Shown here one piece after another: positions 9,046 through 36,840 of a DNA stretch of 46,682 bases; within the stretch, counting starts at the first letter, position 1; the number at the start of each line of letters is the position of its first letter. The stretch is from an uncultured Methanosarcinales archaeon (GTDB lineage: Archaea > Nanobdellota > Nanobdellia > Woesearchaeales > SM23-78). Below the pieces are notes generated by a model that was given only the letters and a program-made list of their open reading frames with translations, searched no databases and was not told the DNA's origin. The DNA is taken from assembly GCA_964426715.1 (NCBI GenBank), contig CAYRRQ010000002.1, forward strand, positions 1-46,682. The letters run 5' to 3'. The position numbers and the translations under genes are program-made.

Positions 9046-10362
9046 TTACTCCTTAAAAATACTCTCCTCTTCTCTCAGAGCAGTAGGAGCTTCGCCTCCA
9101 TGCCACGTGAACCTGGGTCGTACACGCATAGGATACATCTTCTCATTGCTGTCATCAAGGATTATGGCAGCCCCCTTAACCCTGGGCAGGTCATCAAGGT
9201 ACTTGTCCAAGCCGCTCCTCAGATAACTTTGCATCAAGGTTCCCAGGGCGTCAATGTCTATCTTTGCAGTAATCCTGTGAGAAATAATAGTGTCTGCTTG
9301 GGTCATCACATCAGAATGTATCTTGCCAGGCTGCTGGCTTGCCAGCACCAGGCTAATGCCGGGCTGTCTGCCCTCCCTCAGAATAGTAATTAATGGGTTT
9401 GAAGCCAGGGTTTTGCCATCCTTGGGCAGGAATTCATGAGCTTCATCTATGACAAGCCAGACCATGGGGAAATCAAGCTTCTTAATCTCTTCTTCGCTGA
9501 AATAATACATGCTCTTATGCACCTGCTGGTACTCCTCATTCTTCCTTGCAATCATCCTCTGCACAAAAAGCTTCTCAGCCACCAAGCCAATTACAAGAGA
9601 CTTGATTCTCCAACCCCCAGGCATGGTAGCATAGCAGCTGACGTCAAGCAAAGTCACCTGACCCGGCCTGACAAGCTCGCTAAGAGGAGTACCCTGGATA
9701 TTGAACAGTCCCCAGTTATCAGCATTACTGAACAAGTTCATAGTCGCGTTTTTCACGTTCTCATCAGCACTGCTGTTCTTAACCGCCCCCAAGATGTCCT
9801 GGATAGAAAAATCCTTTTTAGACTTCTTTAATGTATGTATGACTTTCTCAATAAGCACGCCAATAGGATCATTAGGGCTGATGTCAAAAGTCATGCACCA
9901 GTCACTGCCTGCGAGCTCGCTCGGCTTAATACTAAAAGAAGCATCCGTGGGCACGCCCTTGTCCTTGTACTTATCATAATAGCCAACAGGAGTGTAAATA
10001 CTGATATCCAGGCCCCGCGCCTCAATACCCCAGTCATCAAGCAATTCCTGGTCCTTCTTGTTAGGATACTTCATAGTCCAGTAAACACCCATGGTGTCCA
10101 GTATGACCACAGAAACATTGTTCTTAATCTTAGCAGGCAAATCAGATATTCCCTCAGCAATCACACCCATGGTATAACTCTTGCCGCTTCCCCGCTTGCC
10201 GCAAACAAAGATTACGTGGCTGCGAATAACATCCAGCAAGATAGGGTTTGATAAGCTGGTAGTGCGTCCCATCTTAACATAATGCTTGCCCAGGAGAACA
10301 GTGCCCTCTGTGCCGTGCTTTTCACGGTCATTCTCGTTTCTGCCAATCACAATATCATACAT
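9046..10362 (-). CDS. HerA/FtsK-superfamily ATPase (DUF87-like)
   Basis: Walker A 'CGKRGSGKSYTMG' and Walker B 'VWLVIDEAHEFLP', with an N-terminal barrel-like segment 'IVIGRNE..GTEGTVLLGKH'. Confidence 0.8.
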   Translation of the reverse strand: MYDIVIGRNENDREKHGTEGTVLLGKHYVKMGRTTSLSNPILLDVIRSHVIFVCGKRGSGKSYTMGVIAEGISDLPAKIKNNVSVVILDTMGVYWTMKYPNKKDQELLDDWGIEARGLDISIYTPVGYYDKYKDKGVPTDASFSIKPSELAGSDWCMTFDISPNDPIGVLIEKVIHTLKKSKKDFSIQDILGAVKNSSADENVKNATMNLFSNADNWGLFNIQGTPLSELVRPGQVTLLDVSCYATMPGGWRIKSLVIGLVAEKLFVQRMIARKNEEYQQVHKSMYYFSEEEIKKLDFPMVWLVIDEAHEFLPKDGKTLASNPLITILREGRQPGISLVLASQQPGKIHSDVMTQADTIISHRITAKIDIDALGTLMQSYLRSGLDKYLDDLPRVKGAAIILDDSNEKMYPMRVRPRFTWHGGEAPTALREEESIFKE

Positions 10363-10417
10363 GTTAATGACTACACAGGCAGCAAGGGTATATAAATTTA
10401 ACCATCAGGGAGCGCTT

Positions 10418-10567
10418 GTCCTGAATATTAGCGTCATTAACCTGTGAGCACTGCCAGAATTCCTCGTAAGAAACTCTGAGGAATAAAAAATTCTTATTAT
10501 CAATTATTCCTAATTTTTTCAATGCGAACTGACGCAAACGAGCATGAAATGCGAGTTATTCAGGATA
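10418..10567. repeat. MITE-like palindromic element, copy 1 (inverted partner at 30174-30320)
   Basis: Positions 10421-10545 are the exact reverse complement of 30193-30317 (125/125 by manual comparison). The ends are TCCTGAATA and TATTCAGGA. There is an internal hairpin AGGAATAA...TTATTCCT. Confidence 0.85.
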
Positions 10568-10654
10568 AACCCCGGTAAAACAGTTTAAAGAAAACGCACA
10601 TACAGAAAGTTTTAAAAGGATGAATTAACCCTTAATAAGAATGCAAAAAGGACG

Positions 10655-10691
10655 CTTAGTCCCATGAATTGGACCAATAGCCTAGCCGTGG
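10655..10691 (+). repeat. Duplicate of tRNA leader plus 5' acceptor/D-arm fragment (copy A)
   Basis: CTTAGTCCCATGAATTGGACCAATAGCCTAGCCGTGG matches copy B at 10746-10782, CTTAGTCCCACGAATTGGGCCCATAGCCTAGTCTGGG, at 31/37 positions. A third CTTAGTCCC lies at 10891-10899. Confidence 0.6.
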
Positions 10692-10761
10692 CAACTGTTT
10701 ACGCCCAGTTGACATGCAAAGTGTGACGTGCACTCGCTATGCTCACTTAGTCCCACGAATT

Positions 10762-11028
10762 GGGCCCATAGCCTAGTCTGGGAGATTTTTGCGAAAAATC
10801 TCGTAACCAGCAAAAAGCAAAGCTTTTTGTGGCCACGAAATCCTGTTAGGATTTTGCTGGAAAGCAGGCGACATGCGCACCTTTCAGGTGCTTAGTCCCC
10901 TTTCAAGAATGGTTTTTCGTAGGAGTTATGGACAAATAGGGCATCAGCCTTCTACAACAAAAGCAGGGCTTTTGAGCTCGCCTGTTGGTGAGAGCTGAGG
11001 GTCGGGGGTTCGAATCCCCCTGGGCTCA
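10762..11028 (+). tRNA. Candidate tRNA-Arg(UCU) with two introns: ~153 nt in the D-loop region and 38 nt at canonical 37/38
   Basis: Three exons: 10762-10785 (GGGCCCA TA GCCT AGTCTGGGAGA), 10939-10954 (GGGC A TCAGC CTTCTA) and 10993-11028 (A GCTGA GGGTC GGGGG TTCGAAT CCCCC TGGGCTC A). They give a 76-nt cloverleaf. A relaxed BHB can be drawn for intron 2. The intron 1 junction is uncertain. Confidence 0.6.
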
Positions 11029-11046
11029 CTTCTTAATTTTTTTTAA

Positions 11047-11991
11047 TTATATATCTTTATACAACTCCAGAATCTCCTTAACACTCTTGGCGCGCATCAG
11101 CTTCTGCCTGTGCTTCTTAGCCCCTCTCACGCCCTTGGTAAACCACATTGCCTGCTGTTTTAGCTCAGAAAAACTTCTTATTCTCTCGTATTTCCTGTAA
11201 TAATCAAGGAATTTTTTAAAAGCCTGTTTTCTTTCCTGCTCGCCTGGCTCTGGAATGTTACTCCCTGTTTCCAAGAGGCCATTCGTTCTCTTAAAAATAA
11301 AGGGGTTGCCAATGGCAGCCCTGCCTATCATCACAAAATCGCAGCCTGTTCTCTCAAGCATTGACTTTGCATTGCCAGGTAAAAATACATCACCATTACC
11401 AATTATAGGAACCCTGGCTTTTTGCTTGGCCTTTTTTATCTTATCCCAGTCTGCCTTTCCAGTGTACTTCTGGGCTTTGGTTCTTGCATGAATAGCTATG
11501 GCATCCACTCCCAAATCCTCGAGAACCCTTATGCTCTTCATGGTGTTCACAGATTTCTCATCCCAGCCAGTCCTTATCTTGGCAGTAACCGGCTTGTTAG
11601 TGTTGTCAATCACAGGCTTAACTATCTTTTTGGCCTGCTCAGGGTGCTTTGCAAAGAATGCTCCTGCTTTCAGGGCCAGGATGTCTTTTTTAGGACAGCC
11701 CAAGTTAACATCAATCACATCTGCGTATTCTTCAATAATCCTGGTAGCCTCGGCTGCCATCTTTGAATCACTGCCTGCGAGCTGGACAGAAACCGGCTTT
11801 TCTTTTTTCAGAAAACAGGTTCTTTGAATGATTTTCTCAGGGGTATTAACAACCTGATTTATCACGAGCATAGGCGTGCTTACAAGGCCTGCGCCGTACT
11901 CCCTGCAGAGCAGCCTGAAAGCTGCACAGTTAACACCTGCCATGGGTGCGAGGATTAGTTTTGAGTCAAGTTTAAGGTTGCCTATTCTCAT
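11047..11991 (-). CDS. dus: tRNA-dihydrouridine synthase
   Basis: Motifs 'LILAPMAGVNCAAFR', 'DVNLGCPKKD' and 'IHARTKAQKYTG'. The start is set at the ATG at 11991, because the tracked N-terminal extension overlaps tRNA-Cys on the other strand. Confidence 0.85.
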   Translation of the reverse strand: MRIGNLKLDSKLILAPMAGVNCAAFRLLCREYGAGLVSTPMLVINQVVNTPEKIIQRTCFLKKEKPVSVQLAGSDSKMAAEATRIIEEYADVIDVNLGCPKKDILALKAGAFFAKHPEQAKKIVKPVIDNTNKPVTAKIRTGWDEKSVNTMKSIRVLEDLGVDAIAIHARTKAQKYTGKADWDKIKKAKQKARVPIIGNGDVFLPGNAKSMLERTGCDFVMIGRAAIGNPFIFKRTNGLLETGSNIPEPGEQERKQAFKKFLDYYRKYERIRSFSELKQQAMWFTKGVRGAKKHRQKLMRAKSVKEILELYKDI

Positions 11992-12073
11992 TTTTCTATG
12001 ATAAGAATGTGAACTCTTATTTAACTTTTTTTCGTAAGCTTTATTAATCTTGTTTTTCTCCTTCTGCTTTAGT

Positions 12074-12146
12074 GCACCGGTGGCCAAGCGGCTAAGGCAT
12101 TCGGCTGCAACCCGAAGATTCGTGGGTTCGAGTCCCACCCGGTGCT
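12074..12146 (+). tRNA. tRNA-Cys(GCA)
   Basis: Full cloverleaf read by eye: acceptor GCACCGG/CCGGTGC, anticodon arm TTCGG-CTGCAAC-CCGAA, T arm GTGGG-TTCGAGT-CCCAC, discriminator U73. Confidence 0.95.
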
Positions 12147-12157
12147 TTCTTCTTAAA

Positions 12158-12931
12158 ATGACCGAGAAAAAACTCTTAATCAAGAAAGAGAAAAAAGTCA
12201 GGGTTGATGGCAGGGAGAGAGTTATCTCTGGCTTTGAAAAGCATTATGCTGATACTGGTAAGGACTATCATACTAGGCACGGGATTATTAGTAAAAAAGA
12301 TTTATTGAAGAAAGCAGGTTCTAGTATAAATGTTAGAAATCATAATTATATAATAATAGATCCGGTGTTCCTGGACCATTACAAGCGCATAAAAAGGTTT
12401 GCGCAGATAATAACGCTTAAGGACATAGGCGCTATTATTGCCAATACAGGCATAACCAAAGATTCTATTGTGTTGGATGCTGGCAGTGGCTCAGGAGCCC
12501 TGGCCTGTTTTTTGGGCGTGCTTGCAAAAAAGGTTATTACTTATGACAAGGATGAGAAAAGCCTGGAAGTTACTAAGGAGAATGTTAAGACTCTGGGCTT
12601 AAACAATGTCTTTGTAAAGAAAGGAGATATCTATGCGCATACCAGGATTAAGGAAAAAAACATTGATGTTCTTGTGCTTGATGTTCCTGAGCCATGGAAA
12701 GCAGTTAAAACAGCACAAAAAGTGCTTAAAATAGGCGGTTTTTTGGTTGTTTATCTTCCAAACATAACCCAGGTGCAGGAAATTGTTAAAGCACTGTCTG
12801 ATGAATTATTGCTTGAGAAAACAATAGAAGTTATTGAGAGGGAGTGGGCTGTTGATGCCAAGAGGAGCAGACCCAAGACCAGGGACCCTGCTCATACTGG
12901 ATTTATTACATTTGCAAGAAAATTAAAATAA
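12158..12931 (+). CDS. trmI: tRNA (adenine-N1)-methyltransferase TrmI/Gcd14-like
   Basis: SAM motif 'VLDAGSGSGALACFL' and 'DVLVLDVPEPWKAV'. The start is set at the ATG at 12158, just after tRNA-Cys. Confidence 0.85.
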   Translation: MTEKKLLIKKEKKVRVDGRERVISGFEKHYADTGKDYHTRHGIISKKDLLKKAGSSINVRNHNYIIIDPVFLDHYKRIKRFAQIITLKDIGAIIANTGITKDSIVLDAGSGSGALACFLGVLAKKVITYDKDEKSLEVTKENVKTLGLNNVFVKKGDIYAHTRIKEKNIDVLVLDVPEPWKAVKTAQKVLKIGGFLVVYLPNITQVQEIVKALSDELLLEKTIEVIEREWAVDAKRSRPKTRDPAHTGFITFARKLK

Positions 12932-12951
12932 GTGGTAAAAAAGTGATTTTT

Positions 12952-13518
12952 ATGAAAAAAGAACTCCGAGTAGTAGGGATTGATGATGCTCCTTTTGACA
13001 AGTTTGACCCCTTGCAGAAGTTTGTTCTTGTTGTTGGCACTGTTTTTCGCGGGGGTAGCTTTATGGACGGCTTGCTCTCCACTCATGTTGAGAAGGACGG
13101 CGAGGATGCTACAGTCAGGATTATTGAGATGATTAATGACTGCAAGTTCAAGCCTCAGCTCCAGGCAGTTTTTCTTGACGGAATCGCAGTAGGAGGCTTT
13201 AATGTTGTTAATCCCAGGGCTGTTCACAAGGAAACCGGGGTGCCTGTGGTCGTGGTTATAAGGGAGAAGCCGGATTTTGGCAAGATGTTCAGGGCTTTGA
13301 AAAAGCTGGGCATGGAGAAAAAGATTGATATTATCAAGGCTATGCCTGCGCCTGAGAAGGTGAATGATGTTTATGTCCAGAATATTGGGATTAGCAATAA
13401 GGATACTGTAAAGCTGCTTGACATTACCTGCACCCACTCATATCTTCCTGAAGCCATAAGAGTAGCTCATTTAATCGCGTCTGGAGTTGCGGATGGCCAG
13501 AGCAGGGGGAGGGCCTGA
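12952..13518 (+). CDS. UPF0215/DUF99-family protein (EndoV-like fold family)
   Basis: 'LRVVGIDDAPF...VVGTVFRGGSFMDGLLSTHVEKDGEDAT' resembles the archaeal DUF99 signature. ATG at 12952. Confidence 0.65.
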   Translation: MKKELRVVGIDDAPFDKFDPLQKFVLVVGTVFRGGSFMDGLLSTHVEKDGEDATVRIIEMINDCKFKPQLQAVFLDGIAVGGFNVVNPRAVHKETGVPVVVVIREKPDFGKMFRALKKLGMEKKIDIIKAMPAPEKVNDVYVQNIGISNKDTVKLLDITCTHSYLPEAIRVAHLIASGVADGQSRGRA

Positions 13519-13523
13519 ATAAT

Positions 13524-13941
13524 TTATGTATTTGTTCTTGTGTTTTTCTTTATGATTTCCAAGAATTCTTTTACGTCTCTTACCAGCTCTGTTGTTATTG
13601 TTTCAAATACCAGGTTATTGTCCATGTTTCTGTATTGATGTGCTAACACATTTCTCATGCCTTTTATTTGTTTTAGATTGAATGATAGTTTACTTGATAT
13701 TAATTCTTCTTTTTCCAATATATTGAAGAGATTCTTATTTTCTTTTGGGATTTTTAATGTTCTTGTTTTTTAATATTAGTTTTGCCAGGTCTGCCATGGA
13801 TTCGGTTATTATTTCAAAGTATCTTTCGCATGCTGCTCTTGTTTTAAGGTCCTGCTCATGTTCTGAAAATTTTTCTGGCATAAAACTTTCAATCTCAGAA
13901 AGATATTTCTCTATTTCATGTATTTTTTCAGGTATTCTCAT
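13524..13941 (-). pseudogene. hepT: HEPN/DUF86 (HepT-like) toxin gene split by a frameshift in an A5 run
   Basis: The N-terminal part (13735-13941) and the C-terminal part carrying 'GMRNVLAHQY' (Rx4H) are in different frames. Removing one A near 13750-13755 joins them as '...NKNIKIPKENKNLFNILEKEELISS...'. Confidence 0.7.
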
Positions 13942-14434
13942 CTCTGAAAATAATCCTGCCTGTCTTATTTATATCCTCCTGCACTTTTTCCGGAAGGTTT
14001 CCAAATACCTGGATGTCCATTTGATCAGAAACATTTGCATGAATCCTTTTCCTGAATAAGGTGCTCTCTTTTAAGTCCAGTTCTTTCTTGAACTTTACAG
14101 CAAGGTCTATGTCGGAATCAAACATGAATTCCTTTTTTATAAATGAACCAAAAATGATTATTTTATCAATGTCTTTGCTTAGTTTGTCTTTGAGGATTTC
14201 TTTTTTTGCCTCTTGTATTTTTTCTTTTGTAATAATTCCTTTTTTCAGCTTGAAATAGTCAGAGTACCTGGCGCATTCTCTTATGAACTCGAATTTTGGC
14301 CTTATGTCTCTTGAAAGCCTGTTCTTCTCTGACTGAGTCAGGTTTATGCCTATTAGCTGCTTTTCAATGATTTTCAGCTCTCTCTTGCCAAAAACCTTTC
14401 TTGTATTCTTGTTCTCCTTTAAAAACCTTAACAT
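13928..14434 (-). CDS. mntA: Minimal nucleotidyltransferase (MntA-like antitoxin) with ~85-aa N-terminal extension
   Basis: Motif 'IIIFGSFIKKEFMFDSDIDLAV' (GS...DxD). Its 3' end overlaps the HEPN start by 14 nt. Confidence 0.75.
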   Translation of the reverse strand: MLRFLKENKNTRKVFGKRELKIIEKQLIGINLTQSEKNRLSRDIRPKFEFIRECARYSDYFKLKKGIITKEKIQEAKKEILKDKLSKDIDKIIIFGSFIKKEFMFDSDIDLAVKFKKELDLKESTLFRKRIHANVSDQMDIQVFGNLPEKVQEDINKTGRIIFRDENT

Positions 14435-14504
14435 CTTTATAACCCTGATAATAGTTACAATAACCTAAATAAAGGTTATATTTAAACTTTTCTATTTTTA
14501 ATAA

Positions 14505-15194
14505 TTATCTTGTCTTCCTAAGAAAACCATTAAAAGAATGCCCTAGAAAAAGCATGATCAAGCCCATAATAGCTGTGTGAAAAAACATTTTATTTGCAAA
14601 CCCCTTAAAAAAGCCTTGGGGAAACATCTTGATTAACAAGTAATAATCTGGGAACGAGTAGTTGCCCTGGGGGAACAAGACCTGGTGAAATGCGTTGAAA
14701 AAGGCCGGGAAGTTAAGGCTAAGAATAAAGAGGACTGCCAGGACTCCCAAGGTGCTTATCCCAGCGCAGACAAGGATTCTCCTAATATTAGGCCTGAACT
14801 CTGCTAGTGTGCTTAGGCGCATGATAAAAGCAAACAATAATACTGCTGCTGCAATACTCGTGGCTTTTACCCATGAGATTATGTTCTTCACATCCTGCAG
14901 GTGGCTCTTCTCCTCTGGCTCAAAAACAGTTAATTGCTCTGTTTTATTAATTTCAGTATTTTCACTAGTTAAGTAATTAATTAAGTAGTCAAGTGTGTTC
15001 CTAGTGCCCTGCACTCCGAGCTCGTCATAGACTCCGAGCTTCTCAAAGCTGTTGTCATAAAAGCTCTTGTCAAACAAGACCATCAAGAAGCTGGCGCTGA
15101 ACAAGATAAGGACTATGAGAAATACTGAGAGGATTATCAGGGTTTTTTGCTCTTGATGTCTTGTTTGCGCTGATAATTTCATTATGTTTTGCAT
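14505..15194 (-). CDS. Integral membrane protein, DUF1461/TIGR01906-like
   Basis: An N-terminal TM helix, then 'FYDNSFEKLGVYD', 'FEPEEKSHLQDVKNII', then 3-4 TM helices. The family assignment is from memory of this pattern. Confidence 0.5.
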   Translation of the reverse strand: MQNIMKLSAQTRHQEQKTLIILSVFLIVLILFSASFLMVLFDKSFYDNSFEKLGVYDELGVQGTRNTLDYLINYLTSENTEINKTEQLTVFEPEEKSHLQDVKNIISWVKATSIAAAVLLFAFIMRLSTLAEFRPNIRRILVCAGISTLGVLAVLFILSLNFPAFFNAFHQVLFPQGNYSFPDYYLLIKMFPQGFFKGFANKMFFHTAIMGLIMLFLGHSFNGFLRKTR

Positions 15195-15238
15195 ATTTTC
15201 ATTAACTTTAAATAACTTCTTATCCAGAGGTATTATTT

Positions 15239-16123
15239 ATGAGCATCATTGTCCAGCTTTTACTCAACGGCATAATCGCAGGCAGTATTTATGCTTTGAT
15301 AGCCTCTGGCTTCAGCCTCATCTACTCTGTGGCCAAGTTCATGCACTTTGCCCACGGAGCTGTTGTCACTGTATCTGCTTTCTTTCTCTTCTTCCTTGTG
15401 GCATTGCTCAAGCTTCCTTTCTGGCTGGGCTTTATCCTCACAGTCGTGTTTGCTGCCCTGCTCGGATTACTGATGAACCTGGTTGTTTACAAGCCTTTGA
15501 GGAACAGGAAGGCCACTAATGCTGTTCTCCTGATTGCAAGCCTGGCATTATTCATCTTCTTCCAGTCATTAATGATTGCCTTGTTCGGAGCTGATATTAA
15601 GACTGTGAGGAGCGGCACTATCAGCACGGGCATTAGTTTCCTGGGAGGCATAATTACAGAGCTTCAAATCATTATTGTGCTTGTATCCCTTGCTCTCCTA
15701 GTATTATTATGGCTTTTTATGAAGCGCACCAGGCTGGGCAAAGCCATGCGCGCAGTGGCTGATAACAAGGAAGTCGCCCAGACAGTGGGCATTAACCCTG
15801 AGAAGATATACAACCTTACCTTTATTATTGGAAGCGCTATTGCAGGCATAGCCGCGGTTCTTATAGCACTTGAGCAGAACATAGAGCCTAACATGGGCTT
15901 CAGCCTGATAATAAAAGGTTTTACAGGCTCAATCATCGGGGGCATCAGCAGTGTGCCCGGCGCAGTGCTCGGCTCCTACCTTTTAGGCCTGGTTGAGAAC
16001 CTGGGCATATGGTACCTGCCATCGGGCTACAAGGACGCCATAGCCTTTTTCCTGTTATTCATATTCCTGTTAATCAGTCCCAAAGGAATCCTTGGCTTAA
16101 AAAAAGGGGTGGGCACTAAATGA
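15239..16123 (+). CDS. livH: Branched-chain amino acid ABC transporter permease (LivH-type)
   Basis: Polytopic membrane protein with 'LLNGIIAGSIYALIASGFSLIY' and 'RAVADNKEVAQTVGIN'. Confidence 0.85.
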   Translation: MSIIVQLLLNGIIAGSIYALIASGFSLIYSVAKFMHFAHGAVVTVSAFFLFFLVALLKLPFWLGFILTVVFAALLGLLMNLVVYKPLRNRKATNAVLLIASLALFIFFQSLMIALFGADIKTVRSGTISTGISFLGGIITELQIIIVLVSLALLVLLWLFMKRTRLGKAMRAVADNKEVAQTVGINPEKIYNLTFIIGSAIAGIAAVLIALEQNIEPNMGFSLIIKGFTGSIIGGISSVPGAVLGSYLLGLVENLGIWYLPSGYKDAIAFFLLFIFLLISPKGILGLKKGVGTK

Positions 16124-16998
16124 TAGAGGCTTACTTAATGCACATCCTTATCCTTATCTGCATTTACATAGTCTTGGCTGTGAGCCTTGACCTGGCTGTT
16201 GGTTTTACTGGCCTGCTTAACATGGGCCATGTCGCGTTTTTCGGCATCGGGGCTTACACCTCTGCCCTGCTCGTGCTCTCAGGCGTTCCTTTCTGGGTTG
16301 GCTTGCTTGCAGGCGCAGTACTGGCAGGCTTTGCAGGCTTCCTGCTCTCATTGCCCACGTCCAAGATAAGAGGGGATTATCTTGCATTGGCAACAATGGG
16401 TTTTGCTTTTATTATTGAGAGCTTTATGAAGAACTGGGTTTCTCTTACCCGCGGCCCTCTGGGCTTGCCCGGCATTCCCAGGCCGAGCTTTTTCGGCTTT
16501 GTAATCAGCTCGCAGTTCGGCTACCTGGTCTTTGCTTTTATTGTCATGCTCATATGCGCCTTGCTGATAATAAAAATTGAGAAGAGTCCTTTTGGCAGGT
16601 TGCTCGAGGCTGTCCGGGATGATGAGACTGCTGCCAGGACTCTGGGAGAGAATGTTTACAAGACCAAGGCTATTGGCCTGACAGTCTCTGCTTTTTTTGC
16701 AGGGGTTGCAGGCAGCTTGTACGCGCATTACATCTCTTTTATTGACCCCACTACTTTCAGCCTGCTCGAGGTTATATTGTTGCTCAGCATCATAATCGTG
16801 GGCGGCCTGGGCAGCAGCAAGGGCGCGATTGCGGGCACCATAATATTATTAATCCTTCCTGAGCCTCTCAGGTTCCTGGGTTTTCCAAGCAGCATTGTGG
16901 GTCCTGCCAGGCAGATGATTTATGCCTTGATATTGTTGTTAATCATTTATTTCAGTCCCAAGGGTTGTTTTGGAAGAGTGCAGCTGGGTGAGTCATGA
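16120..16998 (+). CDS. livM: Branched-chain amino acid ABC transporter permease (LivM-type)
   Basis: Contains 'GLLNMGHVAFFGIGAYTSA' and 'AVRDDETAARTLGENV'. The ATGA start overlaps the livH stop. Confidence 0.85.
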   Translation: MIEAYLMHILILICIYIVLAVSLDLAVGFTGLLNMGHVAFFGIGAYTSALLVLSGVPFWVGLLAGAVLAGFAGFLLSLPTSKIRGDYLALATMGFAFIIESFMKNWVSLTRGPLGLPGIPRPSFFGFVISSQFGYLVFAFIVMLICALLIIKIEKSPFGRLLEAVRDDETAARTLGENVYKTKAIGLTVSAFFAGVAGSLYAHYISFIDPTTFSLLEVILLLSIIIVGGLGSSKGAIAGTIILLILPEPLRFLGFPSSIVGPARQMIYALILLLIIYFSPKGCFGRVQLGES

Positions 16999-17753
16999 TG
17001 AGCAAATATCCAAAAACATTGCTTGAACTAAGAAGGGTTTCAAAGCATTTTGGAGGAGTAAAGGCTGTTAATAACTGCTCTTTTTATGTGAAGCAAGGTC
17101 TTATCACAGGGCTTATTGGTCCTAACGGCGCTGGCAAGACAACTGCTTTTAACCTGATAGCTGGCTTGCTAAAACCTGATAAGGGCAGGATAAGCTTTTT
17201 GAAACAGGACATCACAGGCAGGTCCGCTCATGTAATTACCAGGATGGGTCTTGCCAGGACTTTCCAGCATGTCAGGTTGTTTGACAACCTTAGCATTGAG
17301 GAGAACCTGTTAGTGGCTGTTGATCATCCTGGCGAAAAGTTTTTTAACTGCTTTTTTCACTCGAGGAAAAGTGGTTCTTATCACAAGAAGATTAAGGGTG
17401 TCCTGGCCTTGGTAGGCCTGAAAAAGCCTTTGAGCACCCTCGCTGCTGATTTGTCTTATGGCCAGAAGAGGCTCTTGGAATTGGCAAGGGCTCTTATGAT
17501 GGATTACAAATTATTAATGCTTGACGAGCCCACAGCAGGCGTGAACCCTCTTATAAGGAAAAGATTGAAGGCTTTGCTCAGAAAGCTCAGAGAGCAGGGC
17601 AAGACCATTTTGTTAATAGAGCACGACATGGATTTTGTTATGAGCTTGTCAGACGAGGTAATAGTGCTTGATGCTGGGAGAAAGCTTTTGGCTGACAAGC
17701 CCTCAAAGGCAAGGAAGGACAAGAGGGTATTGGAAGCATACCTGGGAAAATAA
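16995..17753 (+). CDS. livG: Branched-chain amino acid ABC transporter ATP-binding protein (LivG-type)
   Basis: Walker A 'GPNGAGKTT', signature 'LSYGQKRLLELA', Walker B 'LLMLDEP'. The start overlaps the livM stop. Confidence 0.9.
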   Translation: MMSKYPKTLLELRRVSKHFGGVKAVNNCSFYVKQGLITGLIGPNGAGKTTAFNLIAGLLKPDKGRISFLKQDITGRSAHVITRMGLARTFQHVRLFDNLSIEENLLVAVDHPGEKFFNCFFHSRKSGSYHKKIKGVLALVGLKKPLSTLAADLSYGQKRLLELARALMMDYKLLMLDEPTAGVNPLIRKRLKALLRKLREQGKTILLIEHDMDFVMSLSDEVIVLDAGRKLLADKPSKARKDKRVLEAYLGK

Positions 17754-17803
17754 TATTTGAAAAAATTTATAAAGTATAATAAATTATACAACTGTATAAT
17801 AAA

Positions 17804-18343
17804 ATGAACAACGAAGATAAGATACTTAAAGTAGTCTTTGAAAATCCATATGATGAGTTCCATATGAGGCTGCTGGCCAGGATGACAAAACTACATCCAA
17901 ACACAGTTATAAATATAACCGACTCTTTAGCAAAAAAAGGTTATGTTATTAAAAAAAAGGACAAACAAAAAAACATGGTCTTGGTTAAGGCCAATAATAA
18001 AAACTGGTTTTATAAAGTTAAAAAACAATATTTCAACATAAAAAAAATATACTCCAGCGGACTAATTGATTTCTTGAATGAGAAACTGGATTACCCCGCA
18101 ATAATATTGTTTGGCTCATATGCAAAAGCTGAAAACCATAAAGGAAGCGACATAGACCTTTTTATTGTGACATCCACAAAGAAAAGAATTGATTTGAGCA
18201 ATTATGAAAAAAAACTCGGCGCTGAAATACAATTGTTTGTTCATACAAGAAAAGAATTCAAGAAATTAATAAAAACCAACCCTGAATTAATAAACAATGT
18301 TATAAACGGATATAAGCTTTCAGGATTTCTGGAGATAGCATAA
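17804..18343 (+). CDS. wHTH-fused minimal nucleotidyltransferase (antitoxin-like)
   Basis: The N-terminal 'LLARMTKLHPNTVINITDSLAKKGYV' is wHTH-like. The NTase motif is 'IILFGSYAKAENHKGSDIDLFIV'. Confidence 0.75.
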   Translation: MNNEDKILKVVFENPYDEFHMRLLARMTKLHPNTVINITDSLAKKGYVIKKKDKQKNMVLVKANNKNWFYKVKKQYFNIKKIYSSGLIDFLNEKLDYPAIILFGSYAKAENHKGSDIDLFIVTSTKKRIDLSNYEKKLGAEIQLFVHTRKEFKKLIKTNPELINNVINGYKLSGFLEIA

Positions 18344-18759
18344 TGATATTTGAAGATTTTATAAAAGAAGAAAGAGTAATTATTGGAGAAAAAGACTTTC
18401 AAAAAGCAAAAGCGCTAATCAAAATGTCAAAGAAAAATTTTCAAACAGCAGAAAAACTTGAAATAGATAAGATTACAGCCTCAACAGTGTTGAGTATCCT
18501 ATACGAATCTTTAAGGGAAATAGTAGAAGCGATATGCTTAACAAAAGGGTACAAGGTTTGTTCTCATGAAGCGTTTACAGCCTATCTAAAGAAAATAAAT
18601 GAAGATAGCACCGCAGAGAAGTTTGACAGATTAAGAAAACTCAGGAATAGAGTTCACTACTACGGGAAACCAGTATCAACTGAAACTGCTGTTAATGCAA
18701 AACAAGAAGTAAAAAAATTAAATTACTATTTAACAGATAAGCATCTGAAAAATTTATAG
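18343..18759 (+). CDS. HEPN-domain protein (toxin-like partner of the NTase)
   Basis: Its first base is the last base of the 17804-18343 gene (ATAATG junction). Contains 'FDRLRKLRNRVHYYG' (R-x-H HEPN motif). Confidence 0.7.
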   Translation: MIFEDFIKEERVIIGEKDFQKAKALIKMSKKNFQTAEKLEIDKITASTVLSILYESLREIVEAICLTKGYKVCSHEAFTAYLKKINEDSTAEKFDRLRKLRNRVHYYGKPVSTETAVNAKQEVKKLNYYLTDKHLKNL

Positions 18760-18762
18760 AAA

Positions 18763-19470
18763 ATGATTTTGCAAATAAAGGATTTGGCAGCCGGATACGG
18801 CAAGTTCGCAGTACTGGAAGACGTGGAGATAAGAATTAAGCCTGATGAGATAGTGGCTCTTATTGGTCCTAACGGCGCAGGCAAGAGCACTGTGCTCAAG
18901 TCAGTTTTTGGCCTGACCACTGTTTACAAAGGCAAAATAATCTACAGGGGCAAGAACATTACCCGGCTTAAGACTAGCGAGCTGGTAAGACTTGGCATAA
19001 GCTATGTTCCCCAAGGCAGGCAGGTGTTCCCCTCCTTGACTGTGAGAGAAAACCTGGAGATGGGAGCGTTCATAACAAATGACAAAGTGCTTGTCAGGAA
19101 GAAGATGCACGAGGTTTTTGACCGGTTCCCTGTTCTTAAGGAGAAAATAAATGATTATGGTTTCAGCCTGAGCGGAGGGCAGCAGCAGATGCTGGCAATG
19201 GGAAGAGCCCTGATGCAGGACCCCCAGCTGTTGTTGCTGGACGAGCCCAGCCTGGGTTTAAGCCCCAACCTAATGAAAGACATATTTAAGAAGATTATAG
19301 AGATTAACAAGGAAGGAACAGGCGTGCTCATAGTAGAGCAGAACGCAAAGCAGGCCATGAAGATTGCTCACAGGACCTATGTGCTTGAGGACGGCAAGGT
19401 CGCATTTAAAGGCGGAAAGAACATTGTTAACAACCCCAAGATTAAGAGTATTTATCTGGGCGGGCGATGA
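18763..19470 (+). CDS. livF: Branched-chain amino acid ABC transporter ATP-binding protein (LivF-type)
   Basis: Walker A 'GPNGAGKST', signature 'LSGGQQQMLAMGRAL', Walker B 'LLLLDEPS'. It starts 3 nt after the HEPN stop. Confidence 0.9.
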   Translation: MILQIKDLAAGYGKFAVLEDVEIRIKPDEIVALIGPNGAGKSTVLKSVFGLTTVYKGKIIYRGKNITRLKTSELVRLGISYVPQGRQVFPSLTVRENLEMGAFITNDKVLVRKKMHEVFDRFPVLKEKINDYGFSLSGGQQQMLAMGRALMQDPQLLLLDEPSLGLSPNLMKDIFKKIIEINKEGTGVLIVEQNAKQAMKIAHRTYVLEDGKVAFKGGKNIVNNPKIKSIYLGGR

Positions 19471-19532
19471 GTAGTCATATAGTAAATATTATAAAACAAA
19501 CCTTATTTCTTATCTTTTTGGGGGGGGATTAT

Positions 19533-20657
19533 ATGTCAGATGAATACAACAAACTAACTGCTAAAAAACTATTAGGACTTGCTGATGTTAAGATTAACGG
19601 GGACAGGCCCTGGGATATTCAGGTTCATGATGAAAGGTTGTATCAAAGAGTTCTTAGCCAGGGCTCTTTAGGCCTTGGAGAAAGCTACATGGATGGCTGG
19701 TGGGATTCAAAGAATATTGACCAGCTCACCCAGCGAGTCTTAATGGCTGATTTAAAAGACAAAGTAAAAGGCATCCCAGTTCTAATTATTTTCTTAAAAG
19801 CAAAACTATCCAATCTCCAGAGAAAATCACGGGCTTATAATATTGGAGAAGCACATTATGATATTGGTAATGGCCTTTACACCAGAATGCTGGATAAAAG
19901 AATGAATTACAGCTGCGGTTATTGGAAAGATGCAAAAAACCTTGACCAAGCACAAGAGAACAAATTAGAACTTATATGCAAAAAACTTGGGTTAGAAAAA
20001 GGCATGAGCGTGCTTGATATTGGTTGCGGCTGGGGAGGATTTGTAAAGTACGCAGCAGAGAAGCATGGAGTAAAGGCTGTTGGGATAACTGTTTCTAAAG
20101 AGCAAGTTGATTATGCAAGAGAAGACTGCAAAGGATTGGATGTAAAAATAAAATTAGAGGATTATAGAAACCTAAAAGACAAGTTTGACAGAGTCGTTTC
20201 TGTTGGGATGATAGAGCATGTTGGCTATAAGAATTACAGGACTTTTATGAACGTAGTTGATAATTGCTTGAAAGATGATGGCTTGTTCTTATTACACACT
20301 ATTGGCGGCAATAAGAGCGGCGTTATTGGAGAGCCATGGATGCACAAATATATTTTCCCAGATGGAATGCTGCCATCACCAGTACAAATATCCAAGGCGA
20401 TTGAGGGCTTGTTCATGATTGAAGACTGGCATAACTTTGGAGCAGACTATGATAAAACCCTAATGGCTTGGCATGCTAATTTTAATAAAAACTGGCCTGA
20501 AATAAAAAAGAATCCAAAGTATGATGAAAGATTCTTTAGAATGTGGAATTATTATATATTAACATGTGCGGGGGGTTTCAGGGCAAGGCACAATCAGTTA
20601 TGGCAGATAGTGCTCTCAAAAAAAGGAGTTCCTGGCGGGCATGAGAGTGTTAGGTAG
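19533..20657 (+). CDS. cfa: Cyclopropane-fatty-acyl-phospholipid synthase family SAM methyltransferase
   Basis: Contains 'GSLGLGESYMDGWWD', 'AHYDIGNGLY', 'VLDIGCGWGG', 'SVGMIEHVG' and 'YILTCAGGFRAR'. The ATG at 19533 follows a GGGGGGG run. Confidence 0.85.
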   Translation: MSDEYNKLTAKKLLGLADVKINGDRPWDIQVHDERLYQRVLSQGSLGLGESYMDGWWDSKNIDQLTQRVLMADLKDKVKGIPVLIIFLKAKLSNLQRKSRAYNIGEAHYDIGNGLYTRMLDKRMNYSCGYWKDAKNLDQAQENKLELICKKLGLEKGMSVLDIGCGWGGFVKYAAEKHGVKAVGITVSKEQVDYAREDCKGLDVKIKLEDYRNLKDKFDRVVSVGMIEHVGYKNYRTFMNVVDNCLKDDGLFLLHTIGGNKSGVIGEPWMHKYIFPDGMLPSPVQISKAIEGLFMIEDWHNFGADYDKTLMAWHANFNKNWPEIKKNPKYDERFFRMWNYYILTCAGGFRARHNQLWQIVLSKKGVPGGHESVR

Positions 20658-21030
20658 CTAAATCTTCTGCTTTTTCCCATAGTTCATCAAATACTTGGTT
20701 AAAGGTTTGTGCAAATATTTTATCTTCTATTAAAAATCCTCTGGGTTTTTTACTTGTTATATATTGTGTGTAGAGTTTATTTCCTATTGTTCCCCATTCA
20801 GCATCCTTTTTTAAGTTCATGAATTTGATTGTTGTGTATTGGTTGGTTCTTTTCTTTGCTAGTTCTTTTTCCTCTAGTGGAAAAATCATTTTTGAGTTTA
20901 CTTTTTTCTCGAATCTTATTTTATGATGTTCTGTGTAAACCCCCACTAAGCGTTCATAGCTTTCTTTTTTTGCTGTGTACACTCTTTCTAGTTGTTCTGA
21001 ATTCATTTCCTGATTTATTTGGTGCCACAT
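20650..21030 (-). CDS. Hypothetical protein, possibly the 3' remnant of a TrmB-like regulator
   Basis: The same frame stays open ~130 nt upstream of the ATG, through an A9 run, with no alternative start. The C-terminal 'FAQTFNQVFDELWEKA' weakly resembles a TrmB C-terminal domain. Confidence 0.4.
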   Translation of the reverse strand: MWHQINQEMNSEQLERVYTAKKESYERLVGVYTEHHKIRFEKKVNSKMIFPLEEKELAKKRTNQYTTIKFMNLKKDAEWGTIGNKLYTQYITSKKPRGFLIEDKIFAQTFNQVFDELWEKAEDLAT

Positions 21031-21201
21031 GGCTTTTATTCCTGTTATTCCTTCAGAGTATTTGTAGTTTGAGTAAGGCTCTTTAGGCAGCTCGGCTTTT
21101 TTTAGGTTTCTTATTATTTCTGCTACTTCTTTTCTTTCTTGTTCTAGTTTTTTTTTGCTTTTCTAGAAAAAGCTCATTCAGGGTTTCTGGGGTTCTTTTT
21201 T

Positions 21202-22947
21202 CTAACTATAATACAACTTCCCAGATTTCTTCTGCTCCTCGTCTTTCTGGCTGCCCGGCTTATTTATTCTTGGCCTTTGGCTTTCTTCATCTCGCCTAAA
21301 GGTTAGTTCTATGTTTTTCAGGAAGTGGTTCATGCCCTCCTCCATTTTAAACGGGCCTGTGACTTGTCCTCTTATTGCAGGCTTTCCTTTAAAAACTATT
21401 AGTCTGTCAGATATGGTGTCTATGAATAATAAATCGTGGTCTACTATGAGCGCGCTCCTGCCTGTTATTTTTAACATGTCACGCACCACTTTTCCCAGGC
21501 TTAGTCTCTGCTCTACATCAAGATAAGCAGATGGTTCGTCCATAAGAATCAAATCAGAATCTTCACTCAGGCACCTGGCTATCCACACTCTTTGAAGCTC
21601 TCCTCCGCTGAGCTCGCTTAGTTTTTTTGTGAGCAAGCCTTTTAGCTCTAATGGCCTTATTAGCTGAGCATCATGTTTTTGAACTGCGGTTTGCAGGAAA
21701 GTTATTACTAGTTCATCGCTTTGCTTTAAGTATTGCGGCTTGTAGCTTATGTTCAACCCTTTTAATTCAGGGCCATTAATTTCGCCGGCTAGGGTTCTTA
21801 CAAAGGTTGTTTTTCCTATGCCGTTCTCTCCCAGGATTCCTATCATGTCGTGCCTGTAAACTGCTCCTTTGTTAGCATGGAGTTCAAAACTGCCTGCTTT
21901 CCCTTTAAAAGCCTGCCATTCTGTTAATAACTCCATTCTCTTGATATCCACAGGCGGCCTTGCCTCAAACCTTATCTCTTTATCCCTGAAACGAACATTC
22001 TCTTCTTTTAAATAACCCGACAAGTAGGTGTTAATACCTGCTTTTGCACTCTTGGGCGTGCTAGCCACTCCAAAGGCTTCTGGCTTTCCATACATCAGGT
22101 GGATGAGGTCTGCCATGTAGTCCAGGATTATGAGGTCGTGCTCAACCACCATGACTCCAGTGGTCTTGTCTGCCAGGCCTCTGATAAACCTGCTTATCTT
22201 GAGCCTCTGCTTGACATCCAGGTAGCTGGTTGGCTCGTCAAAAAAATAGACATCTGCTTTTTTCAGGACGCAAGCAGCAATCGCTACCCTCTGCAGCTCC
22301 CCGCCGCTAATCTTGCTTATGTCATGGTCAAGTATCTCTTTTAACTCAAGGACTTTGCTTATCTCGTCAAGTTTTTTTAATTCATCAACTTTTTGTAGCA
22401 AGCCCTTAACACTGCCTTTGTACTGCCTGGGTATCTGGTCTACTTGCTGGGGCTTGTAACTAACCCTGATTTTTCCTTTTTTCTGCTTTTCAAAGAAGCC
22501 CTGGGCTTCGCTGCCCTTAAAATAATCTATTAAATCATCATAAGACGCTTCTCTGCCTGTTTTGCCCAGGTTGGGCTTGTCCACGCCTGCAAGAATCTTT
22601 AATGCTGTGCTCTTTCCAATACCATTCCTACCTATGATTCCAACAACTTTATTATTTATTGGTATGGGCAGGTTGTAAAGCGCGAACCCGTTTTTTCCAT
22701 ACCTGTGAACAGGCTCTTTTTTTAATTCCTCTGGCAGGTTAACAACGTCAAGGGCCTTGAAAGGGCATTTCTTGACGCATATGCCGCAGCCAATACACAA
22801 GTCCTCGTCAATGCCTACCTTGCCGTCATCAGTCTTGATAATGCACTCCTCTCCCTTGCGGTTTACAGGGCACACTCTAGCACAAAGGTATCCTCCGCAT
22901 GCCTGCGGGTTGCACTTGTCCTTTTTTACTATGCATATTCTGCTCAT
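21202..22947 (-). CDS. ABCE1 / RNase L inhibitor-type ribosome recycling ATPase
   Basis: N-terminal Fe-S motifs 'CNPQACGGYLCARVCP' and 'CIGCGICVKKCP'. Two ABC domains ('GRNGIGKST', 'GENGIGKTT', two 'SGGELQRV'). Confidence 0.95.
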   Translation of the reverse strand: MSRICIVKKDKCNPQACGGYLCARVCPVNRKGEECIIKTDDGKVGIDEDLCIGCGICVKKCPFKALDVVNLPEELKKEPVHRYGKNGFALYNLPIPINNKVVGIIGRNGIGKSTALKILAGVDKPNLGKTGREASYDDLIDYFKGSEAQGFFEKQKKGKIRVSYKPQQVDQIPRQYKGSVKGLLQKVDELKKLDEISKVLELKEILDHDISKISGGELQRVAIAACVLKKADVYFFDEPTSYLDVKQRLKISRFIRGLADKTTGVMVVEHDLIILDYMADLIHLMYGKPEAFGVASTPKSAKAGINTYLSGYLKEENVRFRDKEIRFEARPPVDIKRMELLTEWQAFKGKAGSFELHANKGAVYRHDMIGILGENGIGKTTFVRTLAGEINGPELKGLNISYKPQYLKQSDELVITFLQTAVQKHDAQLIRPLELKGLLTKKLSELSGGELQRVWIARCLSEDSDLILMDEPSAYLDVEQRLSLGKVVRDMLKITGRSALIVDHDLLFIDTISDRLIVFKGKPAIRGQVTGPFKMEEGMNHFLKNIELTFRRDEESQRPRINKPGSQKDEEQKKSGKLYYS

Positions 22948-22964
22948 ATTCTTAGGAATACTGC

Positions 22965-23615
22965 TTATTTGTTTTTAAATCCTTTGTATAACATCCTGAA
23001 ATATTGCTCAGGTATGAACACGTATTTTTTTAGTTCTTTCATGGTTTTCTCTGTGTCGAGCAAGGCCCACTTGTCGCCGTGCCTGTGCTGCCAGGCTGCT
23101 TCTTTTACCAGGTATCCCCAGTCAAAAGTTTTTTCTTTTTTTACGATTGTAAGTATGTCTTCGAGGTCTTTGTCTCTTTCAGTTATTGCTTTTAGGAATA
23201 CTATGTGTTCTTTTCTTAACACCTTGACAACCAAGTTTTTGTTTTCTTTGAACTCATGAACTGCGTAGAGGTCTTCCTGCATTTTAGGGCTTATCAAGGT
23301 TTTGAAGATTTGCTTTACAAAAAGGTCAAACCTGGCTTCTTCTCTGTTGTACATTACAGGCCTGTTTTTTTCTCTTAGCTTCTCAGGAATAAATATCCTT
23401 ATTGGGTCTGACTTTTCAAACCCAAGCTTTTCTATTGCTTTTACAAATTCCTGTCTGTCCTCTTCTTTTTCAAACAACAAGTCTATGTCTTTGGTCTCGT
23501 CATTGTAGCCGTAGAACATCATGGCTGTGCCTCCAAAAGCATAGCACTCAATATCTTTGGAAAGGTTCTTTGCGATTAGTCTGAACAGGTCTAATTGGTC
23601 TTTTGCTGTTATCAT
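22965..23615 (-). CDS. Putative nucleotidyltransferase (AbiEii/DUF6036-like toxin candidate)
   Basis: Motif 'CYAFGGTAMMFYGYNDETKDIDLLF'. The start overlaps the stop of the upstream HTH gene (TAATG). Confidence 0.55.
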   Translation of the reverse strand: MITAKDQLDLFRLIAKNLSKDIECYAFGGTAMMFYGYNDETKDIDLLFEKEEDRQEFVKAIEKLGFEKSDPIRIFIPEKLREKNRPVMYNREEARFDLFVKQIFKTLISPKMQEDLYAVHEFKENKNLVVKVLRKEHIVFLKAITERDKDLEDILTIVKKEKTFDWGYLVKEAAWQHRHGDKWALLDTEKTMKELKKYVFIPEQYFRMLYKGFKNK

Positions 23616-24226
23616 TAAGCCACCTCTATAAGGTCTTTCTTATTAAAAGGTATGTATACATGCCATTTTCCCTGGATTTCTGGAAAGTTATTCCTGTTTT
23701 TTAGCGTACTTATCTTTTTCCATTTATACTTCTCTTTTTTTCTTCTTTGATACTTCTGCGGCATCTTTCTCACCTTGAAGTGCATTCTTGCCAGGTCGTA
23801 TAGTGCGCCGACTTTTTGCCAGCAATCCTGTTCTTTTGCCAGTTTGTATAGTCTGGGCCAGTTTGTTATGTGGTTAAAGAGCCTGAGGCTTGCTAGGATT
23901 GCCCTGAAGCTACGGGTTTGTATTGCGTCTATGAGTGCTTCCTCTGGCCCGTATCTGCCGTGCACCTGGTGATCGTACCACGGGTTAAGTTTCATTGGTG
24001 AGTGCTTGTTTATTATGTCGAACATGCCGCGTTTCCGAGGCCTCTGTTTTCTCGCGGTTATCTTGTAAAGCCTTTTCTTCCTGCCTCCCCCGCTGGTTGT
24101 GACATGGCCTTGTTTTTTCAGCTTGCTGACCAGGTTGAGGGCTGATTGGCGCGTTATGCCCAGGGCTTCTGCTATTGTCTCTATTGTGTGCAGGCCTTCA
24201 AGTTTTAAGAGTGCTTCGTTGTCCAT
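23615..24226 (-). CDS. wHTH transcriptional regulator (AbiEi-like antitoxin candidate)
   Basis: N-terminal 'IETIAEALGITRQSALNLVSKLKKQGHVTTSGGG', plus a ~130-aa C-terminal domain. Confidence 0.55.
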   Translation of the reverse strand: MDNEALLKLEGLHTIETIAEALGITRQSALNLVSKLKKQGHVTTSGGGRKKRLYKITARKQRPRKRGMFDIINKHSPMKLNPWYDHQVHGRYGPEEALIDAIQTRSFRAILASLRLFNHITNWPRLYKLAKEQDCWQKVGALYDLARMHFKVRKMPQKYQRRKKEKYKWKKISTLKNRNNFPEIQGKWHVYIPFNKKDLIEVA

Positions 24227-24250
24227 AATAATATTATCTATATTAACTAA

Positions 24251-24258
24251 TATATAAA
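24251..24258 (-). promoter_or_regulatory. TATA box (TTTATATA on minus strand) for the HTH/NTase pair; spacing implies a leaderless mRNA
   Basis: The box is centred ~27 nt upstream of the ATG at 24226. Confidence 0.4.
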
Positions 24259-24305
24259 TTTTTCTATTTTTAAGTTAGGTTAAATATTTTTTTGTTACAA
24301 TTAAC

Positions 24306-24313
24306 TATATAAA
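24306..24313 (+). promoter_or_regulatory. TATA box (TATATAAA) for polB; spacing implies a leaderless mRNA
   Basis: The box is centred ~27 nt upstream of the ATG at 24337, with no SD between them. Confidence 0.4.
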
Positions 24314-24336
24314 CCTGACTGAATTATTATAAGCAC

Positions 24337-26658: not shown

Positions 26659-26667
26659 GTTGTTTTA

Positions 26668-26869
26668 GTTAAGACCTACTCTGCTTTGCTCACTGAAAAA
26701 CCGTTCGCAAAACTTCGCCGATACAAAAATGAAAAACATTTTTGAATGTGCAAAATAAAAAAATTTGCACACACCTTGCAAGTTTGCAATTTTAATTGTA
26801 ATCTCCAAAAACTTGTTTTTGATGGTTTACGTTGTAAACGTTGCAACTGAAGACAGCGACGGTCTTGAC
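26668..26869 (+). repeat. Structured intergenic repeat, family F, copy 1
   Basis: Arms GTTAAGACC / GGTCTTGAC. The 5' core is TACTCTGCTTTGCTCAC and the 3' core is GAAGACAGCGACGG. It shares CTTGCAAGTTT and GTAAAC(G/A)TTGCAA(C/A)TGAAG with copy 3. Confidence 0.7.
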
Positions 26870-26895
26870 ATCGCCTTTAAATTCATAATATTAGA

Positions 26896-27168
26896 TCAAA
26901 TCAGGCTTATATAGCCGGGTTCAGGCTCTGTTATGAGGTGGTCGTCTTTTAGCAGTCCAATTATTCTTTCAATCTCTGTTTCTGTCATTCCTTCTGCCTG
27001 GGCTTCGAGCAGAATGCTTTCTTTCTGCACCTTTTTTCTCTTCTTGGTAATCATGTTGTTGATTATGTTCATTAGTTTTATCTTGTTGTCTGTTTCTGAC
27101 TCATTGGTTACTGAGCGCAGTGTCATCCTCTGGATGCGCATTAGTTCTTCAAATTCGTCCGGGTCCAT
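26896..27168 (-). CDS. Small protein resembling the C-terminal winged-helix domain of MCM
   Basis: 'ESILLEAQAEGMTETEIERIIGLLKDDHLITEPEPGYISLI' resembles the MCM C-terminal pattern '...EEKVEELIRILKDKGAIFEPARGYLKIV', recalled from M. thermautotrophicus MCM. Confidence 0.5.
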   Translation of the reverse strand: MDPDEFEELMRIQRMTLRSVTNESETDNKIKLMNIINNMITKKRKKVQKESILLEAQAEGMTETEIERIIGLLKDDHLITEPEPGYISLI

Positions 27169-27332
27169 CTTGCTTGCTTAGAGGCGGGGGGTTTTTTTAG
27201 CTAACATTGTTAATACTACGATGTAATGTTATCCTGACCCCCTTATACAGGTTAGAAGGCTTGCCCCATATAAATAGTTTTCGCTATTAACATACTTTTA
27301 TGTATATCATTCCTTTTTTTGCTTCTCTCTCC

Positions 27333-30040: not shown

Positions 30041-30155
30041 GTTTGTCGCAGAATACGTCGCTACCTTCATTTGCAATGTTTACTGTGTTTTTGTAAACTT
30101 GCAAGACGCGATGGAGCTTTGCAAAGCAAAGCGTAATAGTAATTCTGTGACAAAC
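30041..30155 (-). repeat. Structured intergenic repeat, family F, copy 3 (inverted orientation)
   Basis: Read on the minus strand, the arms are GTTTGTCACAGAAT / ATTCTGCGACAAAC. The core is TACTATTACGCTTTGCTTTGC and the 3' core is GAAGGTAGCGACG. Confidence 0.7.
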
Positions 30156-30173
30156 TCGTTTAGGCAGGGTGCT

Positions 30174-30320
30174 GTCCTGAATACGCTCGCATATGCTCGT
30201 TTGCGTCAGTTCGCATTGAAAAAATTAGGAATAATTGATAATAAGAATTTTTTATTCCTCAGAGTTTCTTACGAGGAATTCTGGCAGTGCTCACAGGTTA
30301 ATGACGCTAATATTCAGAAC
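30174..30320. repeat. MITE-like palindromic element, copy 2 (inverted partner of 10418-10567)
   Basis: Positions 30193-30317 are the exact reverse complement of 10421-10545. The flanking ~20 nt are similar but diverged. It directly abuts family-F copy 3. Confidence 0.85.
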
Positions 30321-30375
30321 AGCGACAATTTTTGCGACAACCAACCTTGCCTTATAGTAAGATAATAAGATAATA

Positions 30376-35765: not shown

Positions 35766-35824
35766 AAAAAATGATTTGGGCAGCAAGATTATAAATGTTT
35801 CTAGTTTTTTTATAATGTATTCGT

Positions 35825-36780: not shown

Positions 36781-36840
36781 CCCAGCACACTAGTTTTTTT
36801 ATAACAAACTATTTAAACTCTTTTTTCTCTTAATCCTATT

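Follow-up and report, generated by a model that had tools for sequence, protein, structure and literature searches.

In Neisseria, the Correia elements (CREE or NEMIS) generate TA duplications and bring along promoters of their own as well as an IHF site. They are non-coding, about 100 to 155 bp long, bounded by terminal inverted repeats and present in many copies that lie mostly just upstream of genes, properties that they share with the element described here, and a review presents them as promoter-proximal MITEs that can invert in situ and are linked to rearrangements (PMC10969869). The ERIC/REPIN-type repeats of bacteria resemble our element in their long imperfect hairpins, in the compensating changes of the two arms and in their dispersed intergenic copies. 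For REPINs, mobility depends on RAYT (Y1) transposases, and the target is not duplicated. Among archaea, the MITEs SM1-4 of Sulfolobus and the MITEs and PATEs of Haloquadratum are likewise non-autonomous IS derivatives in intergenic DNA. Placement at a fixed distance from a core promoter element, as seen here, has its counterpart in yeast Ty3 and in Tf1. These LTR retrotransposons are guided by transcription factors, Ty3 inserting at Pol III start sites and Tf1 at Pol II promoters. The genomes of DPANN archaea are tiny and densely packed, and the tolerance of these organisms for mobile DNA is poorly understood. A 2024 census of prokaryotic MITEs places a Woesearchaeal genome, with 105 per Mb, among the archaea in which MITEs are densest (PMC11602168).

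The window analyzed here is a stretch of 46,682 nt from a Woesearchaeales MAG that is 82% complete (G000; 916 kb in 84 contigs, over 90% coding). A repeat search of the window returned inverted arms at 10417-10545 and 30193-30321 (129 nt, one mismatch, 99% complementary) that lie 19,647 nt apart. Within them, 10421-10545 is the exact reverse complement of 30193-30317 over 125 nt, which confirms the perfect 125-bp inverted pair, 19.6 kb apart, reported in an earlier sequence-only reading of this DNA. Neither copy overlaps coding DNA: the neighbors of copy 1 are a divergent ATPase gene and a tRNA-Arg gene rich in introns, and those of copy 2 are dnaG and a KH-domain gene. The features of the locus are as follows.

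9046-10362, minus strand: divergent ATPase gene beside copy 1.
10389-10396: TATA box of the divergent ATPase gene, 27 nt from the ATPase ATG and 6 nt from a presumed 9-nt target (10403-10411); the order TATA, 6 nt, 9-mer, outer terminus recurs in at least 10 family members.
10412-10572, plus strand: MITE copy 1 (C2a), core 10418-10566 plus 6-nt degenerate outer termini; covariance model score 154.9 bits.
10421-10545: identical tract on the copy 1 side, probably a gene conversion tract; 0 differences in 125 nt, whereas the 28 nt of the element outside the tract differ by 7 events.
10573-27332: block B (tRNA-Arg, dus ... ABCE1, polB and a small ORF), located in another chromosomal region in the congener G014, between orthologues of the genes of contig C84 and of contig C27.
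27333-29537, minus strand: rio1-like gene and dnaG, inverted, as assembled, relative to both the ATPase gene and the KH-domain gene in comparison with six congeners.
30041-30155, minus strand: family-F MITE copy F3, beginning 18 nt past the 3' end of the copy 2 core.
30168-30326, minus strand: MITE copy 2 (C2b), core 30174-30320 plus outer termini; covariance model score 161.6 bits.
30193-30317: identical tract on the copy 2 side, probably a gene conversion tract; exact reverse complement of 10421-10545.
30328-30342, minus strand: 15-nt fragment just beyond the 5' end of copy 2, probably related to the 5' terminus of family F (7/9 match to the F3 terminus across copy 2).

Both copies had been described as lying beside family-F-like sequence. 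This holds for copy 2, which abuts F3 and is followed by the 15-nt fragment, suggesting a composite junction; what was noticed at copy 1 is mostly the flank geometry common to all copies. ARAGORN detects the tRNA-Arg gene directly downstream of copy 1 (10655-11029) only when introns are allowed (here one of 179 nt), and no more than 15 tRNAs can be detected in the whole of G000. Elsewhere in the window, four tandem 285-bp repeats with 65-80% identity (620-1511) encode a repeated domain of about 95 aa within a 915-aa ORF (132-2879).

A dispersed family of foldback elements

A covariance model trained on 11 copies was searched against 15 genomes of the genus (G000 and 14 congeners). The pair in the window is not a lone pair, which was part of the outcome that would have spoken against the sequence-only reading: G000 holds 10 copies, all intergenic, of which nine are full and one, beside a tRNA-Ser gene, is diverged, together with five intergenic fragments that contain only the 5' module of about 45 nt. 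Relatives are present in 5 of the 14 congeners (six copies in G006, three in G014 and one each in G005, G011 and G002), so that 6 of the 15 genomes carry the family. Beyond the genus, the model detected one or two weak copies in 7 of the 120 other genera searched in this order. The unpublished genome G002 contributes one of the 22 members aligned below and one row in each of five comparisons between genomes, and the conclusions are independent of it. The 5'-module fragments (G000 C12:6731, C14:6290, C46:7632, C4:7427 and C58:5340) include some that fold into a short hairpin of their own, and three of the five lie just upstream of promoters or tRNA genes.

Full copies in G000 are 65-83% identical to each other, the pair C2a/C2b alone reaching 94%. 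They are 147-159 nt long, within the limit of about 500 bp for MITEs, and contain no conserved reading frame, and their indels are not multiples of three, in agreement with the lack of coding capacity noted earlier. The 5' terminus of the C27 copy carries a 10-nt tandem duplication (G000 C27:2110-2130). A pattern scan of JGI metagenomes with the 3' motif gave 17 matches, five of them real; all five came from one metagenome and were 99.9% identical, representing the same population. The runs that contain the locus are hydrothermal-vent metagenomes. Among viral contigs, the scan returned two chance motif matches, neither of which matched the covariance model.

The element forms one long interrupted foldback. 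Its helices are P1, P2, P3 and one rich in A/U, and each arm bears a small hairpin; the internal hairpin of the sequence-only reading was thus borne out. Its terminal inverted repeats also exist and are longer than the 9 bp first given: the terminal stem comprises 11-13 bp and continues into a degenerate outer part of 4-6 nt. This stem is 96% paired over the 22 members despite quite different sequences, and P2 switches concertedly across members. Changes on both sides were found in 39 of 44 pairs, and 89.8% of the cells were paired compared to 68.3% in shuffled alignments. The covariation score was 0.505 versus 0.163 in shuffles (0 of 500 shuffles reached it), and controls with slid partners did not exceed 0.108. 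Judged from these alignments, the foldback arms keep their complementarity while their sequence changes across the genus and the order.

Two tandem G.A motifs are conserved among the unpaired positions, as is a tetraloop of the GNRA type (GUAA; GCAA in one member). We inspected these motifs by eye for hammerhead, K-turn and BHB-intron readings, none of which fit. Rfam gave no family at its gathering score, and none at a meaningful E-value in a permissive scan.

Insertion sites and spacing to TATA boxes

Empty orthologous sites were found at two loci. At C8:16773-16920, two genes remain neighbors in the congeners G008, G009 and G001, and the stop codon is about 20-25 nt from the TATA box; in G000, the element is inserted there together with a perfect direct repeat of 9 nt. 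The spacer of the C1 locus is free of the element in five relatives. Target-site duplications of about 9 bp match at 9/9 positions in four members from four species (G005, G011, G006_C34 and G000_C8b), at 8/9 in three further members and at 7/9 in two. Only one locus is common to G000 and G006. Because of the empty sites, the ~9-bp duplications and the dispersal, we class the element as a MITE, and we propose with a probability of about 0.8 that it is a non-coding foldback MITE of about 160 bp. The MITE-like character suggested from the sequence is thereby supported, also by the lack of coding or Rfam identity. Upstream of the orthologue of C8:16988, G014 (L109) and G011 (L111) each carry a different hairpin-ended insertion of about 200 nt. 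These occupy the same stop-codon-to-TATA spacer as the MITE in G000 and end about 19-25 nt from the TATA box, and the spacer looks like a recurrent landing pad.

The autonomous parent anticipated by the sequence-only reading was not among the sequences searched: the assembled 82% of G000 yielded no autonomous IS with matching ends and also contains no IS6, no TnpB and no pair of element termini at IS length, and the metagenome and viral scans revealed no other carrier. The termini differ strongly between subfamilies, which would be odd if one transposase served all and counts against such a scheme. Two candidate partners, an IS5-type fragment (C77) and the window's rve element, were rejected because their ends are unrelated. 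The latter unit (35043-36792) comprises an rve-type integrase gene (35857-36732, minus strand), a second ORF and 28-nt imperfect inverted repeats (35813-35840 and 36765-36792), and is probably an IS.

A reading as a REPIN-RAYT system or an IS200/IS605-derived PATE moved by a Y1 (HUH) transposase was likewise rejected, given the duplications; such a system would have neither TIR-type ends nor duplicated targets, and its repeats would flank the RAYT gene. Y1 and the element co-occur in three genomes of the genus, three have the element only and two have Y1 only, and the flanks of the Y1 gene in G006 are unrelated to the element. In G000, the Y1 gene is truncated by a contig end (C23:12150-12619) and preceded by several GTAG-prefixed palindromes and a GCGAGC-loop-GCGAGC hairpin; this hairpin is a generic module that recurs in the MITE, in family F and in tRNA-intron modules.

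The duplicated 9-mer lies 6 nt from a TATA box much more frequently than expected by chance. In 8 of 22 members, a gap of exactly 19 nt separates a consensus TATA 8-mer from model position 1, with about 0.5 expected per position. Once the duplications are placed, at least 10 members show the order TATA, 6 nt, the 9-nt target, the 4-6-nt outer terminus and the stem. It is found on the 5' side in eight to nine members and on the 3' side in three; G006_C20a has it on both sides and lies exactly midway between two divergent promoters that are 21 nt apart. The TATA boxes belong to the promoters of neighboring genes, 22-27 nt from the start codons. A second family, F, has related termini (TTTGTC core), duplications of about 9 bp that match at up to 9/9 positions and the same TATA offset, its gap peaking at 17-19 nt owing to a shorter outer terminus.

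These spacings and the conserved fold would also be expected of a small structured RNA gene family with its own promoter, in which the TATA box sets the start at the first base of the terminal stem and the fold, not mobility, explains the conservation. Consistent with this, the five covarying helices come with conserved loop motifs, the TATA peak is sharp on the 5' flank (the 8 of 22 members above) and diffuse on the 3' flank, and G.U pairs outnumber A.C pairs by 40 to 20 on the modelled strand, although this last count is a weak hint, taken from a model-fitted alignment with related rows. Nevertheless, we regard an RNA gene as unlikely. Duplications and empty sites demonstrate insertion, the TATA boxes are those of the neighbors and also occur on the 3' side, and half of the members have no TATA at that offset. 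Moreover, the G000 subfamily has an internal T6 run on both strands that should terminate archaeal transcription, and the family is patchy in the genus and has no Rfam match. A transcribed MITE could be both RNA and mobile; no RNA runs were listed that contain this DNA.

For a MITE, the TATA spacing would reflect target choice and not a promoter of its own, because the insertion at the C1 locus took the 6-nt offset despite about 100 nt of available spacer. Survivorship in a compact genome could contribute to part of the promoter-proximal pattern. As a tentative proposal, which we hold to be possible but not probable, an archaeal DNA transposase would pick its target by reading the core promoter, making a 9-bp staggered cut exactly 6 nt upstream of the TATA box, over or beside the BRE, and perhaps contacting promoter-bound TBP/TFB or the DNA bend that they cause. 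In the mechanism that we envisage, a DDE-type enzyme with 9-bp staggered cuts would move both the MITE and family F in trans and would select the target relative to the BRE/TATA region.

Sequence identity and gene order at the inverted pair

All seven differences between C2a and C2b, including two indels, fall into the first 5 and last 23 of 153 positions. On the 5' side, 10420 is C where 30318 is T, and on the 3' side the variation lies in 10546-10566 and 30174-30192. At about 25%, the divergence of these terminal 28 nt is as high as the family average, and no difference falls in the central 125 nt; under an even spread, the chance that all seven differences lie in the terminal 28 positions is (28/153)^7, about 7e-6. 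The sequence-only reading had explained the identity by recent transposition or gene conversion. We infer internal gene conversion between two old, diverged copies and not a fresh insertion, because a new transposition would have copied the termini too. That one window copy is a fresh daughter of the other, as 125 nt of 100% identity among pairs of otherwise 65-83% might suggest, appears highly improbable, given that the termini, which a transposase must copy, differ by these seven events, that neither copy has a target-site duplication and that both lie at rearranged junctions. Gene conversion between copies can thus mimic recent transposition.

Six congeners have the common order ATPase(-), gene U(+), dnaG(+), rio1-like(+), a variable gap, KH(+) and topoVI-B(+). 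G000, as assembled, has ATPase, copy 1, the 17-kb block (tRNA-Arg, dus ... ABCE1, polB), inverted rio1 and dnaG, F3, copy 2 and KH. Gene U is now located on contig C27, 78 nt from a third copy of the element. In G014, the orthologues of the C84 genes are followed by the 17-kb block B and then by exactly those C27 genes that adjoin the third copy, which shows this arrangement to be the ancestral position of the block. A fourth copy (C34) lies in a changed neighborhood that is common to G006; at this gene-X locus, the elements of G000 and G006 are at the same distance from the TATA box of gene X, with the interior flipped. Next to the C8a copy, the gene found there in relatives is missing in G000.

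Both window copies and the C27 and C34 copies are thus located at synteny breakpoints relative to congeners and have no matching duplications. Copies in conserved synteny retain their duplications; junction copies match at only 1-2 of 9 positions, which fits an exchange of flanks by recombination between copies. We also matched orphan half-duplications across copies; about 8,000 comparisons gave a single AT-rich 9/9 match (C6 with C44), which chance can explain.

The pair had been suggested to be able to mediate a chromosomal inversion. In support of this, both copies lie at novel junctions and dnaG-rio1 is inverted relative to six congeners, but the 19.6 kb do not represent one simple inversion, because at least two or three events are needed and the 17-kb block has moved as well. 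The inverted order could also be an assembly artefact, with contig C2 mis-oriented or mis-joined at the 125-bp repeat, in which case the copies would be real and no inversion would exist in cells. Flipping the segment restores the ancestral order and orientation of ATPase, dnaG and rio1, and the orientation rests on one short-read assembly of about 6x depth over a 125-bp exact inverted repeat that k-mer contigs cannot bridge. Furthermore, JGI assembled this population independently, and that assembly is interrupted exactly where copy 2 has its 5' end. However, read pairs of 150 nt can span 125 nt and assemblers usually resolve such repeats, the flip does not restore matching duplications, and both copies still lie at novel junctions after it, with gene U and block B moved either way. 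We are therefore rather doubtful of an artefact, while giving it real weight. Logan contigs of four vent metagenome runs showed no empty-site allele or alternative joint and are uninformative on orientation. For MAGs in general, 125-bp exact inverted repeats are a warning that the orientation of the DNA between them needs spanning reads.

In run X1, one contig omits 167 nt of the region that joins the small ORF to rio1 (27098-27266); this may be a presence/absence variant or a copy from elsewhere. The polB gene of block B is uninterrupted in G000, G014, G005 and G011 (about 773-790 aa), and matches in two pieces within open frames of about 1170-1180 aa in G006 (C57:61037-64504) and G001 (C38:11546-15097), with an intein-sized insert.

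Taking a true rearrangement as the preferred reading, ectopic recombination between dispersed copies probably homogenized the inverted window copies via gene conversion, and the same recombination would have swapped flanks, leading to the movement of the block and the dnaG-rio1 inversion.

Comparison with known systems

Our analysis supports a real MITE family whose unusual property is the TATA offset. Such a MITE can persist in a compact DPANN genome by landing just upstream of promoters, and its copies act as recombination substrates that coincide with breaks in gene order between species of one genus. If the offset, seen in two families and several species, is true targeting, it offers a testable lead to promoter-directed integration in Archaea. 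Provided that the promoter is indeed read, the 150-nt family and family F would be the first known case of prokaryotic elements that integrate at a constant spacing from a basal promoter element, with a safe harbor in a genome that is more than 90% coding and with recombination sites seeded at gene boundaries.

Correia elements offer a further parallel in that they invert in situ, comparable to the flipped interior at the gene-X locus. In contrast to them, the family described here duplicates about 9 bp and lies at a constant spacing from an archaeal TATA box that was already present; its termini, moreover, differ from one subfamily to another. It differs from REPINs by its duplications and by the single Y1 gene, which shows no link to it. 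In the literature searched, we came across no prokaryotic MITE with a constant TATA spacing, and neither a promoter-offset targeting rule nor genus-wide covariation of the arms is described there for archaeal MITEs, from which the family also differs in that no parent IS was found for it. Unlike Ty3 and Tf1, it is a small archaeal DNA element, for which guidance by TBP/TFB is a hypothesis.
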